Below are positions 869 to 60,981 of a DNA stretch of 64,000 nucleotides, in pieces. The notes under the pieces were generated by a model. It was not told where the DNA came from, made no database searches, and saw nothing but the letters and a program-made list of their open reading frames with translations. Origin of the DNA: an uncultured virus (IMG/VR IMGVR_UViG_2643221865_000004) (Duplodnaviria > Heunggongvirae > Uroviricota > Caudoviricetes); the IMG/VR virus record IMGVR_UViG_2643221865_000004. One strand, written 5' to 3'. Each line of letters opens with the position of its first letter. The stretch's first letter is position 1. Made by a program: the position numbers and the translations under genes.

Positions 869-1873
869 TCACTCACCGAACGGGGTGCCGCAGCTGAGGC
901 AGTTCCCGCGGAGTGAGAACGGCTCTTCGGTGTCGCAGGTGTCGCAGTCGCGCCAGGCGAACGCCTTCGGGTGCTTGTTAAGCCATGTGCCGAGGGCGTG
1001 CTCGCCTTCAGCTTCCTGGACTGCGTACGCCTCGTCTTCGAATGCTTCGTCGAGGCACTTCAGGTGGATCATCAGGTCGTGGTTGAACCCGTACATGCTG
1101 TTGTTGCCGTACGCGCCGTTCAGGCTGTTGTGAAGCTCGACGATCTTCGTCTCCTTCTCCATCCGCTCGGCAGCTCCCTCGATGGTCAGCGGGAAGGGGT
1201 TCTCGTCGGTTTCCTCGACGGTGAACTGCAGCTCCACGTCCTCCCAGGTGTAGCCGTCAACGTCGGCGCCGTACTTCTCTTTCACCCATGCTTCGAACGC
1301 GTCCACGTGGTAGTTCAGGTAGGTGTCGATGTCGCCACTGATTTCCTCACCAACGGCGGCGACGGGGTTGACGACGATCCCGCCGGTGATCCGAAGCTTG
1401 CCTTCAGATGAGCGGCTGACCTCGATGCGGTCCGCGTAGGCGTGGCCGATGACGGACGGCATGTACTGCTCACCGTCTCCGTGTTCGATGCTTCCGAACT
1501 GGGACTCAGCCGCGACGAGCCGCTCGTACCGGGTCACCTGGGCGGCGAGTTCGGCGTTACCGGAGTCATCGGCGAGCTCCTGGCGGAGGATTTCCAACGT
1601 CATGCTGTTGAAGGCGGCCGCGGCAGCAGCTTCGATCTCCTCGGCGGTCTTGCCGTCGGCGATGAAGAAGTCGAAGCTGCGGTGGTCGATGCCGGAGCCG
1701 ACCGTCTCAGAGACAGTGAAGATGTTGTCGTCGATCTGCTGGATGCGGAGCTCCTCACCTTCGCTGCTGAAGAAGTGGGTGCCGCCGCCGGCGTTGACCC
1801 ACTTCTCGGGCAGGTCGTAGCTCTTGAAGGTGAAGGTGCCGTCGCCGAGGCGGGGCTGGATCTTGTTGGTCAT
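869..1873 (-). CDS. Hypothetical acidic protein with N-terminal RLGDGTFTFK tag and C-terminal Zn ribbon
   Basis: 334-aa ORF; CDTC...CLSC at C-terminus; CACACCTA motif 6 nt before ATG. Confidence 0.7.
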   Translation of the reverse strand: MTNKIQPRLGDGTFTFKSYDLPEKWVNAGGGTHFFSSEGEELRIQQIDDNIFTVSETVGSGIDHRSFDFFIADGKTAEEIEAAAAAAFNSMTLEILRQELADDSGNAELAAQVTRYERLVAAESQFGSIEHGDGEQYMPSVIGHAYADRIEVSRSSEGKLRITGGIVVNPVAAVGEEISGDIDTYLNYHVDAFEAWVKEKYGADVDGYTWEDVELQFTVEETDENPFPLTIEGAAERMEKETKIVELHNSLNGAYGNNSMYGFNHDLMIHLKCLDEAFEDEAYAVQEAEGEHALGTWLNKHPKAFAWRDCDTCDTEEPFSLRGNCLSCGTPFGE

Positions 1874-1915
1874 GCACCGTAGGTGTGTGGCCAGCCCAGC
1901 CTCGGGGAGCCGGAC

Positions 1916-2215
1916 CTACTGCCGCCAGTTCGACGGGGCGTGGTTCTCCTCGACGGCCGCCTTGTGCTCAGGGCTGGCGTACAGGCGGAGGATGTGGATG
2001 CACGGGTCCGATCCCTCCTCGAACTCCTCAGCCTCCTCACGGCTGAGCGGGGTGATCGGGAGGGCCAGCTGGTCCTCCTCGTAGGCGGCCTCCTCAGCTT
2101 CGCTCATCGGGAACCCATCGTGGGTCTCGCAGATGCCGGGGCCGACAAAACCGGCCTCAAGGCCGATCCTCAGCCACTCGTAGATGTCGAGCTCGGGCTT
2201 GATGGTGTCTGTCAT
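1916..2215 (-). CDS. Hypothetical small protein (phage-like)
   Basis: ORF with AGGAAGG SD before MTDTIK; GCCACATG motif at 2259-2266. Confidence 0.6.
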   Translation of the reverse strand: MTDTIKPELDIYEWLRIGLEAGFVGPGICETHDGFPMSEAEEAAYEEDQLALPITPLSREEAEEFEEGSDPCIHILRLYASPEHKAAVEENHAPSNWRQ

Positions 2216-2405
2216 GGCTTGCGCCTTCCTCATGGGGAGCGGGGGTGTGCCATGAGGGCATGTGGCGAGTATCTATGGAGCGGTGCGCCGTGCGTTGGCG
2301 GCCGAGCGGAACCCAAGTTGCGGAAATCCTAGGCACCCCGTGCTCCGCCGTGCAGTATTCTGAGCGGCACTCACATCACCGATTGCTCCACCCGAAGGAG
2401 ACCAG

Positions 2406-3128
2406 ATGGAGATTCAGCGGAACACGCCGGTGGCACGCAGCTCGGGCGCCAGCCTGAGCATCGGCGGGAAGACGGCACCGCTCGAGCGAAAGTTTGCCGG
2501 GGCCACAAAAGTGGACGTCGGGTTCGTCTTCGACACCACAGGTTCGATGTCGGCGAAACGCGACAGCCTGATCGAGAGCATGAGCGGGTTCATCGACGAG
2601 CTCGCCGGCCTCGGCCTGGACTGGCGTGTGTCAGCGATCCCGTTCGGTGACCTCACCGTCCCTGGGGACCGGATCGACTCAGCATTGCCGTTCGTGACCA
2701 ACGTCGCCGAAGCCAAGCAGCAACTGCGGGGAATGCCGCAGTTCTCTGGTGGCGGCAACGAGGGCGAATCGTCGATCGAGGCGATGTCCGCGGCGGTAGG
2801 CAAAGCTTGGCGCAACGACGCGGTGAAGGTCCTTGTGCTGCTGACTGATGACTATGCGTTGAACGTCAACCGCGCCACGGAGATCACGAGCCTGCTCACC
2901 CAGACCCAAACGCTGTGCTTCGCGGCAGCTCTCGACACCGGGTACTACCGGGACTGGTGCACCAAGTCCGGGGGAGAGTGGACGGAGATCGCCTCCACCA
3001 TGGACACGGGATCTGTCCTCCGCCTCATTCGGACGCTGGTCTCGAAAGTCGCGATCACCGCGGCAGCGGTTCATGCAGTCGGCGGCGGCTCCGTCAGGAA
3101 GTACCTGGAGATCACGGGGCGCAGTTGA
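2406..3128 (+). CDS. von Willebrand factor A (vWA) domain protein
   Basis: MIDAS motif FVFDTTGSM, GGGNEGES, LLTD; AAGGAG SD. Confidence 0.85.
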   Translation: MEIQRNTPVARSSGASLSIGGKTAPLERKFAGATKVDVGFVFDTTGSMSAKRDSLIESMSGFIDELAGLGLDWRVSAIPFGDLTVPGDRIDSALPFVTNVAEAKQQLRGMPQFSGGGNEGESSIEAMSAAVGKAWRNDAVKVLVLLTDDYALNVNRATEITSLLTQTQTLCFAAALDTGYYRDWCTKSGGEWTEIASTMDTGSVLRLIRTLVSKVAITAAAVHAVGGGSVRKYLEITGRS

Positions 3129-59265: not shown

Positions 59266-59293
59266 GATCTGTGGGCATGTGGCGACCACACGA

Positions 59294-59329
59294 AAGCGCC
59301 GCACCTCCGGTTGGGCGGTGCGGCGCTTC
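59294..59329 (-). terminator. Intrinsic terminator
   Basis: AAGCGCCGCACC...GGTGCGGCGCTT. Confidence 0.7.
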
Positions 59330-59337
59330 ACGGGGCG

Positions 59338-60933
59338 TCAGGCGGCTGCGACCTTCCCGGCGGTGGCGTGCAGCTTCGGCATCAGCGACTCCAGGACGTC
59401 GATCGGCTCGTTGTACAGTTCCGCGTCCTGAGCTCGCATCCGGTCGATGATCGGGGACAGGTCGATCTCCGTGTCGGTGGCGGCGGCGCGGACGGTGGCC
59501 AGGTCGTTGTCCCACTCGCCGTCAGCGTCGAGCCAGTCGACGACCAGGGCAGCTTGCGACTTCCGGGCTTCCTGTTCCGCGGCGCTCAGGTGCTCGGTGG
59601 TGTTCCGGGGGACGGCGCCGCGTGCGATGCCGGTCTGGCCCTTGAAGGTGAAAGTGCCGTCGCCGAGACGTCCCTGCTCTTCGAAGTCGACGGTGTCGTC
59701 GAGTGCGTCGAGGGTGGCGAGTTCAGCGTCGAGTGCTGCGTCGGCTTCCGGGTCGTCGATCAGGTCGGCGAGGACGGAGTCGTCCGCTGCGCCGGTGAGC
59801 ATCCGTGCGAGGCTGCGGTCGGCTTCGTCGATTTCGCGGTCCAGCTGCGGCTCAACCCAGAGGCCGGCGAGGCGCTCCTGCTCGGGGGTGGCGGTCACGC
59901 CGACGAGGGCGTTCGCGGCGTCCCATGCTTCAGCGGCGCGGGTCGATTCGGCGTTCTTCAGTGCTTCTGCTTCCATGATCTCTCGTTCGGCTTCTTCGGC
60001 GGCTCGGACTGCTGCCTTCTTGTTCTGGTCGGTGGTCTTCTTCGCGGCGTCCTGGGCGTCGATGTCTTCCAGGTGGGCGGCGAACTCAGGGTCGAAGGCG
60101 GCGACGGCGCGGTTCAGCTCCGACACCATTTCGGCGTGACGGTCGTCGCGGTCTTCCTGGGTGGGGGCGGTCAGCCCCTGCGCCTGGTACCACTTGTCGT
60201 ACGGCAGGTCGTTGACGGCGTCGCCTTCACGGAGCGGCCAGCGCCAGTCGATGTTCTCGTTGCCGGCGCCTTTGTTGCGGAAGTACGCCTGCAGGCTGGC
60301 GGCCTGCTTCGCAGCCCAGCGTGTCTGGCGGGCCTGGAGCTGGTCCATCGTCAGGTCGCCTTCCTTCTCGGCGACCTTGTCGAGCATCTTCCAGGCGACC
60401 AGGCCGGCTCCGATGGCGTCGGCGTCCGCGGTGTGGGCGTTCTCCAGGTTGACGTCGTACAGCTTGCAGATGTTGGAGAGCTTCCGCGGTCCCTTGCGGA
60501 ACTGGTCCAGCTTCTTGTCGATGATGAACGGGTCGATCATGGTGCCGAGGTCTTCAATACCGTCGAGGCCGTGACGCTTCGCGTCCCGGTGGGTGATCGA
60601 CACGTCGAACGCTCCGTTGAACGCCGTGATGGGGATGCCGGCGTCGGAGGATGCCTTCAGGAGGCGGGTGATCTCTGCGACACCTTCCTTGTGGTTGGTG
60701 CCCTGGGTGCGGGCGATGTCGTTGGTGACACCGTGGACGTCGATGGCTACCTGTGGGATCTCCATCTCCGGGTTGAGGAGGAAGTTGTGCTCCTCGAGGA
60801 CGTTGCCGGCACGGTCGATGGTGGCGATGTAGGCGGTGACGATCCGGTCGGTGTCGTTGACACCGGTGGTTTCCGTGTCGAACACGGTCAGGCGGTCCAG
60901 CTCGGAGATGCGGCGGGTGTTTCTCTTGGTCAT
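59338..60933 (-). CDS. DEDDh 3'-5' exonuclease (DnaQ-like) with long acidic C-terminal extension carrying the RLGDGTFTFK tag
   Basis: VFDTETTG, VHGVT, AFNGAFD, IDP, AHTADADA. Confidence 0.85.
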   Translation of the reverse strand: MTKRNTRRISELDRLTVFDTETTGVNDTDRIVTAYIATIDRAGNVLEEHNFLLNPEMEIPQVAIDVHGVTNDIARTQGTNHKEGVAEITRLLKASSDAGIPITAFNGAFDVSITHRDAKRHGLDGIEDLGTMIDPFIIDKKLDQFRKGPRKLSNICKLYDVNLENAHTADADAIGAGLVAWKMLDKVAEKEGDLTMDQLQARQTRWAAKQAASLQAYFRNKGAGNENIDWRWPLREGDAVNDLPYDKWYQAQGLTAPTQEDRDDRHAEMVSELNRAVAAFDPEFAAHLEDIDAQDAAKKTTDQNKKAAVRAAEEAEREIMEAEALKNAESTRAAEAWDAANALVGVTATPEQERLAGLWVEPQLDREIDEADRSLARMLTGAADDSVLADLIDDPEADAALDAELATLDALDDTVDFEEQGRLGDGTFTFKGQTGIARGAVPRNTTEHLSAAEQEARKSQAALVVDWLDADGEWDNDLATVRAAATDTEIDLSPIIDRMRAQDAELYNEPIDVLESLMPKLHATAGKVAAA

Positions 60934-60981
60934 GCGGACCTAAGTGTGCGGCCCGGCCGCATCTCCGAACGTCGGCGTGTC

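Follow-up and report, generated by a model that had tools for sequence, protein, structure and literature searches.

Dozens of unrelated proteins encoded on a megaplasmid carry a common N-terminal peptide and lie behind an unusual promoter, and this pairing recurs on related giant plasmids. Judged by its sequence, the peptide is a portable N-terminal module of about 25–30 residues with a basic head, a G-x-aromatic core and a following E-x2-[VIL]-x-L, and we regard it as very probably functional. The window, i.e. the whole analysed stretch of 64,000 nucleotides, sits on contig C5, a 701-kb replicon of lower GC content with a plasmid RepA. The initial annotation had proposed that one promoter class marks otherwise unrelated proteins sharing a short portable peptide, and regular-expression and PWM tests, invariant residues and recurrence on other replicons all bear this out.

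The promoter class had been defined by the octamer CACACYTA, which is indeed enriched both in the window and on C5 and is coupled to gene starts. It occurs 11 times in the window (0.69 expected; 11 copies were reached in 0 of 100 shuffles) and 84 times on C5, as compared with 22 copies on the remaining ten contigs, which total 3.84 Mb. Within the window, nine of the sites are located 6–7 nt upstream of the ATG of a coding ORF; of the other two, one at 26027 lies inside a gene and one at 36763 has no coupled start. On C5 the octamer forms the core of a 12–14-nt box, GCCRCACACYTA, that ends 6–7 nt 5' of the ATG in 56 genes (genes and control start codons were called with our own codon-usage caller). 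Its conserved part is GCCR-CACAC, extended by YTA on C5, and begins 18 nt 5' of the ATG. As the box reaches from -18 to near the ATG, transcripts would have little or no leader. The box-coupled genes form a regulon-like set with a predicted leaderless layout. A variant box had also been assigned to 15050..15712, but it lies well upstream of the start, as given in the following list of window features.

869..1873, minus strand, tagged protein of 334 aa with no Pfam family; box CACACCTA at 1880–1887, 6 nt before the ATG; tag RLGDGTFTFK at residues 8–17 (nt 1823–1852, minus strand)
8070..14124, minus strand, backbone block encoding proteins of 394, 862, 345, 112 and 239 aa, directly downstream of three tagged genes
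15050..15712, minus strand, protein of 220 aa with tag-like HPRGFGGMFVQK at residues 30–41 (nt 15590–15625); variant box CACACATA at 15772–15779, 60 nt upstream of a start with an SD-like leader
15826..17214, minus strand, tagged protein of 462 aa; box at 17222–17229; tag at residues 14–40 (nt 17095–17175); phrog_2319 body from residue 78
17235..18041, minus strand, tagged protein of 268 aa; box at 18049–18056; tag beginning RREGHGQW at residues 7–28 (nt 17958–18023)
34135..34710, minus strand, tagged protein of 191 aa; box CACACTTA at 34717–34724; Leu-variant tag NRGADGRLGERRQSEVDRTVT at residues 19–39 (nt 34594–34656)
37647..38273, minus strand, tagged protein of 208 aa; box at 38280–38287; Leu-variant tag RRDKRTGHLGARTHEDPDRAVT at residues 22–43 (nt 38145–38210)
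43015..45120, plus strand, NAD-dependent DNA ligase LigA of 701 aa; box CACACTTA at 43000–43007; tag LQNDGAWAPQQLSTPEIAPLT at residues 24–44 (nt 43084–43146) inside an N-terminal extension of about 60 aa
48979..49674, minus strand, protein of 231 aa; box at 49681–49688; Leu-variant tag QKTSGKLAGSLPKPQSGADLEL at residues 9–30 (nt 49585–49650)
49723..50877, plus strand, protein of 384 aa with a PGDYG domain near the C-terminus; box at 49709–49716; tag beginning KTGGTPGSYSDK at residues 17–38 (nt 49771–49836)
59338..60933, minus strand, DnaQ-like exonuclease of 531 aa (RNase_T at residues 17–173); box CACACTTA at 60941–60948; N-terminal tag absent, RLGDGTFTFK internal at residues 422–431 (nt 59641–59670)

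Genes 34135..34710 and 37647..38273 are paralogues in their N-terminal region, and 48979..49674 and 49723..50877 form a divergent promoter pair. All peptides quoted in the initial annotation were found in the genes named for them, including the two copies of RLGDGTFTFK, whose DNA agrees in 28 of 30 bases. Most of the 56 box-coupled products have a basic peptide at about residues 8–35, and the proteins are mostly unrelated and acidic. The C5 tag reads R-x3-5-[STDN]-G-x-[FYW, rarely L]-x2-[KR]...[ED]-x2-[VIL]-x-L, with R 4–9 residues upstream of the core, K/R at +5 and [ED]-x2-[VIL]-x-L about 9–14 residues downstream; the key G varies in position from residue 8 to 36. The pattern given earlier (R-x3-4-G-x-[FWL], often followed by S/E-x-D/E-x-x-L/V) had captured the tag but not its exact form, as [STDN]-G-x-[FYW] makes up the informative core and L is rare.

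With that earlier pattern, searched in residues 2–46, five of nine promoter genes in the window match and none of the 51 others; the suggested Fisher test of tag and promoter gave 12/56 versus 29/598 for the whole of C5 (p=5.6e-5). The refined expression [STDNGP]G.[FYW] is found in 35 of 56 promoter genes as against 62 of 598 others (p=3e-18) and 38 of 262 windows taken from inside the promoter-gene proteins themselves. With EM seeded on G..aromatic, a seed chosen after inspection of the data, leave-one-out PWM scores of at least 8 bits were reached by 20/56 promoter genes versus 20/527 other C5 genes (p=5e-12; Mann–Whitney test on all scores, p=7.5e-17). These scores separate the promoter genes from the other C5 genes. 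The link is non-exclusive, as tagged genes also occur behind SD-type starts inside operons.

BLAST connected the 56 promoter-coupled proteins in only nine pairs, and Pfam families (E<=0.001) were recognised in five of them, namely LigA, PGDYG, RNase_T, GmrSD_N and ArdcN. All these domains lie behind the tag except RNase_T of the exonuclease, where the tag copy is internal. Ahead of LigA, ArdC, the GmrSD_N protein and the phrog_2319 protein the tag forms an N-terminal extension. Selection on the tag at the protein level is supported: in 15826..17214 the residues R16, G21 and F23 are invariant across four orthologues that are 39–46% identical. Among tags the glycine codons vary (GGC 28, GGG 6, GGA 6, GGT 3), as does the middle residue.

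The C5 tag is a local, degenerate version of a canonical 24-residue module, RQP[AK]GxP[TVI]GGQFA-x5-E[SAP]xVxL, which is sharply conserved. In a library of 1.84 billion proteins this module stands at the head of 672 protein clusters (E<=1e-3). Among the best 150 of these 672 it lies within the first 80 residues in 147 and has its key G at residue 25 or before in 136; the 131 bodies behind it in these 150 clusters fall into 107 unrelated groups with a median pI of 4.8. Conservation ends abruptly about 14–15 residues past the key G. Five Arthrobacter-group megaplasmids (375–440 kb) each carry the module at between 16 and 40 or more places. On pACHL01 it has 49 matches. There were no matches among 50,697 phage records, and in IMG/VR one contig only contains the module, at two loci. 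Pfam, NCBIfam and PHROG hold no model covering it, and literature searches found no paper on it.

The promoter box accompanies the canonical module as well. It is present in the same register at three of five tagged genes of G417:C20. On pACHL01 the tag occurs on 28 of 75 box-coupled genes versus 17 of 466 others (p=1.3e-15), while 47 of the 75 are without it, and in metagenome loci the box precedes 71/108 tagged ORFs versus 207/11229 background ATGs. SD-type starts were seen at 17 of the 108 metagenome ORFs and at about 17 of 45 tagged genes on pACHL01. At least seven pairs of orthologues carry the tag in both replicons, C5 and pACHL01 (matched body segments 27–45% identical), among them LigA, whose pACHL01 orthologue has the tag in canonical form. 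The tag is canonical in G417 and degenerate in C5, although the hosts belong to the same family.

Our best guess, which is a tentative one, is that the tag may serve as docking or translocation signal for the DNA-transfer ATPases of the plasmid. The module would be read by one conserved machine of the plasmid backbone, most likely a DNA-transfer ATPase (the T4SS coupling-protein-like 858-aa protein, the VirB4-like or FtsK/TraB-like proteins), and the tagged set would be brought to the mating channel or travel through it. Candidate cargo would include ligase, exonuclease, ArdC, SSB, ParB-like nucleases, Fic, ADP-ribosyltransferase-like and many unknown acidic proteins, which would act during plasmid establishment in the new host. 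In favour of this reading, tagged genes adjoin a syntenic block kept in C5, G417:C20 and pACHL01. In the window the block 8070..14124, a candidate DNA-transfer module, encodes the 862-aa protein with Walker A and a weak VirB4-like match (NCBIfam VirB4_plasma, E=6e-5, far below the family cut-off) and the 345-aa protein with one TM. The pACHL01 homologue of the 858-aa Walker-A protein of C5 has the record name 'type IV secretory system conjugative DNA transfer family protein'. Additionally, the domains found on tagged proteins (ArdC, SSB, LPD29, DUF2958, ParB-like, Fic, Arr-like) are those of establishment and anti-defence proteins.

Several findings count against the transfer reading. Pfam TrwC (relaxase) and T4SS-DNA_transf had no match in the genome, Replic_Relax had none either but was silent in control genomes too, and all five megaplasmids are typed as non-mobilizable in PLSDB. 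No PDB sequence was matched by profiles of the two ATPases. T4SS signals described so far sit at the C-terminus or inside the protein rather than at the N-terminus, and tagged enzymes like LigA would be useful in the donor cell too. Tagged genes occur on both strands across most of the 701 kb, following the general gene orientation, and form no single leading region. The 47 untagged genes among the 75 behind the box on pACHL01 likewise count against this reading. Of the destinations suggested initially, the conjugation channel is nevertheless the leading guess, with weak evidence for the machinery.

A possible though doubtful alternative is a hub-binding motif that tethers proteins within the same cell without any transport. 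Plasmid replisome, SSB-coated DNA, partition complex or a host factor could be the hub, and plasmid-specific DNA enzymes and accessory proteins would be concentrated on the plasmid. Where a tagged protein has a known domain, it is a DNA enzyme or binder (LigA, DnaQ-like exonuclease, PolyA_pol-type nucleotidyltransferase, SSB, ParB-like nucleases, ArdC), and DnaE, gyrase, RNR and ligases are encoded on the replicon itself. The internal copy behaves positionally like a linear motif, and the abrupt end of conservation is expected of a tethered peptide. However, unlike replisome parts, the majority of tagged proteins are small and acidic and belong to no known family, and a plain hub motif does not need the N-terminal bias of the key G. 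The strong divergence of the tag between G417 and C5, with hosts of the same family, also argues against a conserved host hub.

It is rather unlikely that the tag acts as a degron, or as a pro-degron whose cleavage exposes the aromatic residue, and in this way gives the whole regulon a short, synchronised lifetime via a Clp- or Lon-type protease. F, Y, W and L are the primary destabilising N-degron residues in bacteria and F, Y, W and rarely L occupy the key position of a module that is N-terminal, basic and unstructured-looking; two stand-alone Clp_N-domain proteins are encoded on pACHL01 beside a T4CP-like gene. But no Clp_N gene was found on C5, the 24 nearly invariant residues far exceed what is known to be required of an N-degron, and the copy at residue 422 is unsuited as such.

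Still less probable is that the peptide arises as a by-product of a conserved 5' coding sequence whose role is in leaderless translation initiation, mRNA stability or ribosome pausing. The tag lies inside the first ~100 nt of leaderless-type transcripts and travels with the box in three replicon lineages, but its distance from the ATG varies, G and the aromatic residue are kept while glycine codons and middle residue change, SD-type starts are common, and one copy is at residue 422.

Absence of any function, i.e. compositional chance in GC-rich proteins or the decaying remnant of duplicated 5' ends, is highly improbable. It would fit the degenerate C5 form, the 29 of 598 controls matched by the earlier pattern, the recent copying indicated by the nearly identical 30-nt stretch, and a broad C5-based profile whose only hits in 400 other genomes were GC-rich junk out of frame; against it stand leave-one-out and shuffle controls, the invariant residues, the 672 clusters and the tag kept on diverged orthologue pairs. 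Loading into a phage head, encapsulin or other shell would formally resemble the T4 capsid-targeting sequence and encapsulin loading peptides, where unrelated cargo shares a short peptide, but packaging into virions, and with it the proposed 'virion head' destination, was rejected since no capsid, portal or terminase family occurs among 280 C5 proteins scanned with Pfam, Linocin_M18 encapsulin was not found in the genome and the 50,697 phage records lack the canonical tag, which leaves this reading a negligible chance.

Among known systems, Tat and other N-terminal signal peptides likewise combine basic and aromatic residues in a conserved motif on unrelated proteins. The canonical module has R-Q-P instead of a twin arginine, no evident signal-peptidase site and, unlike Tat, no hydrophobic h-region, as an unconserved A/P/T/D-rich stretch follows from +15 to +25. 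The conjutome of F-like plasmids and T4SS effector signals, as outlined in PMC11288057 and PMC8740702, are examples of many unrelated plasmid-encoded proteins exported by one route. The likeness would comprise SSB, anti-restriction proteins and DNA enzymes among the cargo, recognition by a coupling ATPase and action in the recipient. Hosts of the tagged plasmids are Gram-positive, high-GC bacteria, unlike those of the F-like conjutome, and the T4SS assignment here comes from one record's product name and the weak VirB4-like match. Known conjugative T4SS signals are poorly conserved and C-terminal or internal, whereas the candidate signal here is a sharply conserved N-terminal 24-mer.

Leading-region anti-defence islands of conjugative plasmids, in the outline given by PMC11541004, resemble the tagged set in their co-oriented, small and mostly unknown genes together with ArdC, SSB, ParB-like protein and methyltransferase, and in a dedicated early promoter type. 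They differ in that tagged genes are scattered over hundreds of kb and both strands, that the putative C5 promoter is a box from -18 abutting the ATG and probably not a hairpin ssDNA promoter, and that C5 products have a common peptide tag, which is undescribed for leading regions. Start-associated sequences of Cluster K mycobacteriophages are DNA boxes a few bases 5' of the starts of a gene subset, and thus also conserved upstream boxes on an actinobacterial mobile element; they accompany SD-type initiation with no shared peptide described, whereas the C5 box replaces the leader and pairs with the tag. Finally, the polyvalent proteins of phages and conjugative elements, reportedly described by Iyer, Burroughs, Anand, de Souza and Aravind in 2017, share LPD29, ArdC-N with zincin peptidase, DUF2958 and ParB-like nuclease with the tagged set, as well as the proposed delivery with DNA into a new host. 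These fuse the domains in one giant protein, while the tagged plasmids encode separate small proteins with the same N-terminal tag.

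The peptide tag is a portable, selected N-terminal module linked to a dedicated promoter box whose register is fixed. Its canonical form reads RQP[AK]GxP[TVI]GGQFA-x5-E[SAP]xVxL, and a degenerate form is found on contig C5, of which the window represents positions 509,971-573,970. This contig (701,121 bp, within a 4.54-Mb assembly) has a uniform GC content of 65.2% (nine of the other ten contigs: 68-69%; one 6-kb contig: 62.7%) and encodes a plasmid RepA_C, FtsK/TraB-like proteins, its own DnaE, gyrase and ribonucleotide reductase (RNR) and two LigA proteins, besides type I-E CRISPR-Cas, Wadjet and a flagellar cluster. 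Phage structural families were absent among 280 C5 proteins scanned with Pfam, and we read C5 as a megaplasmid-like replicon. A DNA similarity search with window positions 1-20000 gave no match in phage and plasmid collections. The regions of C5 at ~104-135 kb, 204-212 kb, 1-10 kb and 698-700 kb hold a complete-looking flagellar cluster, the Wadjet system (JetABCD-like) and an RNA-repair set (Ro60/TROVE, RtcB, RNA ligase, Thg1-like). Further gene content of the window comprises:

3125-4927 (and C5 ~171-175 kb, 307-309 kb): several proteins with a DnaJ domain and an unknown C-terminal region, plus an Hsp70-like gene; these may form a plasmid-specific chaperone set
24605-33661 (+): type I-E CRISPR-Cas operon with Cas3, an 840-aa protein bearing both Cse1 and Cse2 domains (an apparent fusion), Cas7, Cas5 and Cas6e
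34738-36807: SdrD_B/SpaA-like surface protein with a signal-peptide-like N-terminus, secreted and untagged
39903-40703: thymidylate synthase
45371-46099: DHFR
52982-55060 (-): GH5 cellulase with a CBM2 domain, adjoining tagged and DNA-metabolism genes
57350-58504: protein with a dATP/dGTP diphosphohydrolase N-domain

The thymidylate synthase, DHFR and diphosphohydrolase-domain genes lie near one another and, together with the RNR and NT5C genes located elsewhere on C5, suggest a plasmid-directed manipulation of the nucleotide pool or of DNA bases.

The window holds 11 copies of CACACYTA, the core of the promoter box, where 0.69 are expected; there are 84 copies on C5 versus 22 on the remaining 3.84 Mb of the assembly. 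At 73 of the 84 C5 sites [GC]C[AG] stands immediately before this core, the full box being G-C-C-R-C-A-C-A-C-Y-T-A-[CG]-[GA], and no conserved -35-like element is seen upstream of these 84 sites. At 58 of them a start codon (ATG in nearly all cases) lies 6-7 nt downstream and opens a reading frame of at least 40 residues, with a positive coding score in 56. From this short spacing we infer that the box-coupled genes yield leaderless or near-leaderless mRNAs. Some C5 boxes without coupled start have a leader of ~30-40 nt instead (e.g., C5 55988 and 447417). Two boxes at window 49681-49716 face each other 20 nt apart, form jointly a perfect inverted repeat and head the divergent tagged genes 48979-49674 and 49723-50877. 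A CACACTTA box without coupled start (window 36756-36763, minus strand) precedes the probable start of the surface protein by ~170 nt. Among 60 relatives the promoter pattern was restricted to the own genome and one single match, and the same-genus genomes in the collection (3.2-3.8 Mb) are devoid of it.

Unsupervised EM over residues 2-51 of the 56 box-coupled products with positive coding score returned [STD]-G-x-[FYW] with K or R three residues on. Alignment of the 40 best sites on the glycine reveals enrichment of R at -4, of [AE]/[ED] at +10/+11 and of L/V at +14, in agreement with the S/E-x-D/E-x-x-L/V segment that the initial annotation had described behind the tag. In the leave-one-out analysis 20 of 56 held-out N-termini reached at least 8 bits. 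Among the controls this score was attained by 20 of 527 C5 genes outside the set, by 4 of 242 segments of 50 residues from the interior of the tested proteins and, after shuffling, by 4.8% of 1120 sequences (Mann-Whitney p = 7.5e-17 and 3.7e-15). The association between tag and promoter class, originally noticed in the window, holds across the whole replicon (p = 7.5e-17), and simple regular expressions are concordant. Fourteen strongly scoring "control" genes sit within the same gene arrays as the tagged genes, and several of them have SD-type starts or a box plus leader. This means that the tag is tied to the proteins and not to leaderless initiation. Tagged genes are found at C5 24-66, 157-250 and 369-693 kb on both strands, following the local gene orientation.

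The proteins behind the tag are mostly unrelated. Only 9 BLAST pairs join the 56 box-coupled proteins; families are rare among the tagged C5 proteins, and the known domains behind the tag start after residue 50-80, in LigA, an ArdC-N plus peptidase protein, a GmrSD_N protein and a phrog_2319 protein. The window genes concerned are:

869-1873: product with RLGDGTFTFK at residues 8-17
15826-17214: tagged phrog_2319 protein
43015-45120: tagged LigA
59338-60933: DnaQ-like exonuclease without N-terminal tag but with RLGDGTFTFK at residues 422-431

The identity of this decapeptide in two unrelated proteins, reported initially, was confirmed, 28 of the 30 underlying bases being equal. Median pI values are 4.6 for the bodies of the C5 tagged proteins, which are acidic, and 8.4 for the basic tag region. 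Domains found behind the tag are ArdC-N plus peptidase, GmrSD_N/ParB-like, SSB, ParBc_2, LPD29, DUF2958, Fic and Arr-like, and most other tagged proteins have no family. Pfam matched the tag itself in none of 150 canonical-tag proteins, 44 pACHL01 tagged proteins (pACHL01 being an Arthrobacter-group megaplasmid) and 56 promoter-coupled C5 proteins, nor in the product of 15050-15712, and NCBIfam in none of 40. With PHROGs a single overlap was obtained for 54 tagged C5 proteins (LigA, L032:8197-10317 and L033:8051-8983 left out), i.e. phrog_20591 at residues 13-101 of the tagged ORFan L029:14829-15386, whose homologue search returned only itself. For 10 tagged proteins a cluster look-up gave "hypothetical protein" as the only name from any source, and in the ESM Atlas residues 1-48 of the protein P0002 had a best feature score of 0.77 and a structure TM below 0.5, which is uninformative.

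Conservation in relatives supports selection on the tag. Three full-length homologues of the 15826-17214 product, two in Agromyces records and one from a metagenome, share 39-43% BLASTP identity with it (41-46% in the alignment), and in the otherwise variable first 40 residues W9, H14, R16, G21, F23, S30 and D31 are invariant. A further homologue is encoded on a 67-kb contig of G417, a genome of the same family, where five proteins begin with M-x3-5-RQPxGQP[IT]GG[QE]FA-x5-ES-x-V-x-L. Three of the five genes are preceded by GCCGCCCTTA, then 8 nt and ATG; this means that GCCG starts 18 nt before ATG on the G417 contig exactly as on C5. A region search with one G417 tag found its own cluster only.

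A profile of these five N-termini (A3) was run against 1.84 billion representative proteins and matched 672 clusters at E<=0.001. Among the best 150 of these 672, 147 have G[GN][QE][FY] inside the first 80 residues and 136 have the key glycine at residue 25 or before (median 16). The resulting logo, R-Q-P-[AK]-G-x-P-[TVI]-G-G-Q-F-A-[A]-x2-[RHN]-x-E-[SAP]-x-V-x-L, has zero information beyond +15. In the same best 150, the 131 bodies of at least 50 residues fall into 107 unrelated groups (89 singletons; median pI 4.8), and Pfam matches occur in 14 proteins, none of them covering the tag (Arr-ms twice, SSB, NERD, Sigma70_r2, DUF7007, DUF5710, DUF7226 and others). The library matches include a sigma-like protein that bears the tag (P0101).

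None of 50,697 phage records was matched by the 40-residue canonical N-terminus. Of 72,556 plasmid records it matched 5, all of them 375-440 kb in size and from Arthrobacter, Pseudarthrobacter or Paenarthrobacter, with 40 or more places in one and 26, 24, 16 and 17 in the other four. In pACHL01 (NC_011879.1) there are 49 profile matches at E<=0.01, including a tandem array of ~20 "hypothetical protein" genes adjoining ParA. The motif GCCRYACAC occurs there at 126 sites, with a start 16-20 nt downstream in 75, and an early GG[QE][FY] is present in 28 of these 75 box-coupled genes versus 17 of 466 other annotated features (p=1.3e-15). The remaining 47 box-coupled genes are untagged, and SD-type starts within operons are seen for ~17 tagged genes. 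On this plasmid (L081-L102) the GCCGCACAC box in the form GCCGCACACATG... heads many untagged small genes and tagged genes have mostly ...GGC immediately 5' of ATG, which suggests two sub-classes within one promoter family. In 76 metagenome loci with 108 distinct tagged ORFs, a box starting 17-19 nt before the candidate start was seen for 71 ORFs versus 207 of 11,229 background ATGs; the others have SD-like starts (17), neither (18) or are cut (2). In 400 genomes of the class the matches of a broad C5 plus G417 profile (A2) outside the genome G000 were out-of-frame GC-rich translations; the narrow profile A3 gave none in the same genomes, a result of little weight with G000 itself also silent, and a narrow-pattern scan of genome contigs found 8 loci only.

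Degenerate and canonical tags appear to be one and the same module. C5 and pACHL01 have 114 proteins in common at E<=1e-8, and at least 7 orthologous pairs, including LigA and a PolyA_pol-type nucleotidyltransferase, are tagged on both replicons, canonically on pACHL01 and in degenerate form on C5. When 27 C5-only tags are combined into a profile, hhalign places it in register with a canonical one (G-Q-F matching G-Q-F, L matching L) at a P-value of 3.3e-4 and a probability of 38%, modest if taken alone.

A single reader protein from the conserved plasmid backbone may recognise the tag, and the favoured candidate is a DNA-transfer ATPase, which we put forward tentatively. It is favoured because of genomic linkage, because the attached domains (ArdC, SSB, LPD29, DUF2958, ParB-like, Fic, Arr-like) are of the establishment and anti-defence type and because F-like systems, which are reported to translocate many plasmid proteins (PMC11288057), set a precedent. 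Three tagged genes are directly followed, on their downstream side, by the window genes 8070-14124, a block conserved in pACHL01 and in G417:C20, a contig of the same-family genome. This block encodes an 862-aa Walker-A protein with a sub-threshold match to NCBIfam VirB4_plasma (E=6e-5, 20.9 bits, cut-off 590). A second Walker-A protein (858 aa; C5 348,437-351,013) is conserved in C5, pACHL01 and G417:C20 and is 36% identical to a pACHL01 protein that its record names T4SS conjugative DNA transfer family protein. The link of the tag with DNA-transfer machinery is weak and comes partly from annotation. Pfam T4SS-DNA_transf as well as TrwC and Replic_Relax had no matches in the genome (control genomes are equally silent for Replic_Relax), no relaxase family was found among the 280 scanned C5 proteins, a kind of search that divergent relaxases could escape, and PLSDB types all five related megaplasmids as non-mobilizable; these points speak against a role in DNA transfer. 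PDB sequence searches with the 858-aa protein, a 517-aa protein and the ATPase profiles A5 and A6 gave nothing below E=1 and one match at E=1, and AF2 modelling of two ATPase domains (T4CP-like and VirB4-like protein, a 2-sequence alignment each) reached mean pLDDT values of 32.7 and 40.9, too low for the models to be used. A few kb from the T4CP-like gene, pACHL01 encodes two stand-alone Clp_N-domain proteins (242,527-243,844; L182), for which no counterpart was found on C5.

Much of the same evidence would fit an intracellular hub motif, which we regard as only slightly less probable than the transfer ATPase, and also a degron, which is a good deal more improbable. A purely nucleic-acid role is largely excluded, since glycine and the aromatic residue are kept while the glycine codons and the middle residue vary, and since SD-led genes are tagged as well. 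Shell loading is also largely excluded: the virion head, one of the destinations first proposed, finds no shell Pfam family among the 280 C5 proteins and no phage record with the canonical N-terminus. Chance is largely excluded, too.

In its widest form, the DNA-transfer reading would turn RQPxGxPxGGQFA...ExxVxL into an N-terminal signal for export or recruitment that is universal in a family of Micrococcales megaplasmids. Together with the leaderless promoter it would mark 45-60 effectors per plasmid, with hundreds of families in all, which are handed to the mating machinery and delivered to recipients. This is conceivable but doubtful. The delivered "effectors" would disarm recipient defences and establish the plasmid. 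If so, Gram-positive conjugation would have its first protein-delivery signal that can be read from sequence, and a large reservoir of unknown anti-defence proteins could be catalogued directly. If the tag is a recognition signal at all, about a tenth of the genes in a whole class of actinobacterial plasmids of 0.4-0.7 Mb could be identified from sequence alone, and so could several hundred unannotated protein families, all of them clients of one machine. It would then also offer a handle on how Gram-positive conjugative elements bring in or arrange their establishment and anti-defence proteins, and a portable engineering tag. The box at -18 to -7, without a -35 element and with ATG at the predicted transcript start, would represent an unusual promoter type. 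Should the favoured mechanism prove wrong, the module remains a widespread, well-defined sequence feature that lies outside curated collections and merits a family model.

Comparison with known systems shows several differences. A Tat signal peptide combines S/T-R-R-x-F-L-K with a hydrophobic h-region behind it and with an A-x-A cleavage site; it was rejected as the canonical logo begins R-Q-P-[AK]-G-x-P-x-G-G-Q-F-A and is unconserved, polar or Pro/Ala-rich after +14. With capsid-targeting sequences and encapsulin cargo-loading peptides, the element itself should also encode the shell, be it major capsid, portal or encapsulin, and Linocin_M18 had no matches in the genome. A Pup-like GGQ mimic was dismissed because C5 does not retain the GGQ, a motif of beta-clamp or PIP type because its spacing does not fit, and flagellar type III export because flagellar genes are present on C5 with none seen in the examined parts of pACHL01 and G417:C20. 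The idea that tagged genes are co-oriented with a transferred strand was rejected, since they just follow the local gene orientation. Leading-region gene sets lie beside oriT on one strand with promoters active on ssDNA, whereas the C5 tagged genes are scattered over both strands; in content the two resemble each other, the tagged genes of C5 and its relatives encoding anti-restriction, SSB, ParB-like and small unknown proteins. Neither Pfam nor NCBIfam holds a curated model of the module, and no papers on the peptide or the promoter were found in the literature covered, which excludes subscription journals. The sequence of the tag, its N-terminal position, its scale (~10% of megaplasmid genes) and its fixed promoter partner appear to have no described counterpart, and by its general kind it is a shared targeting or recognition peptide.
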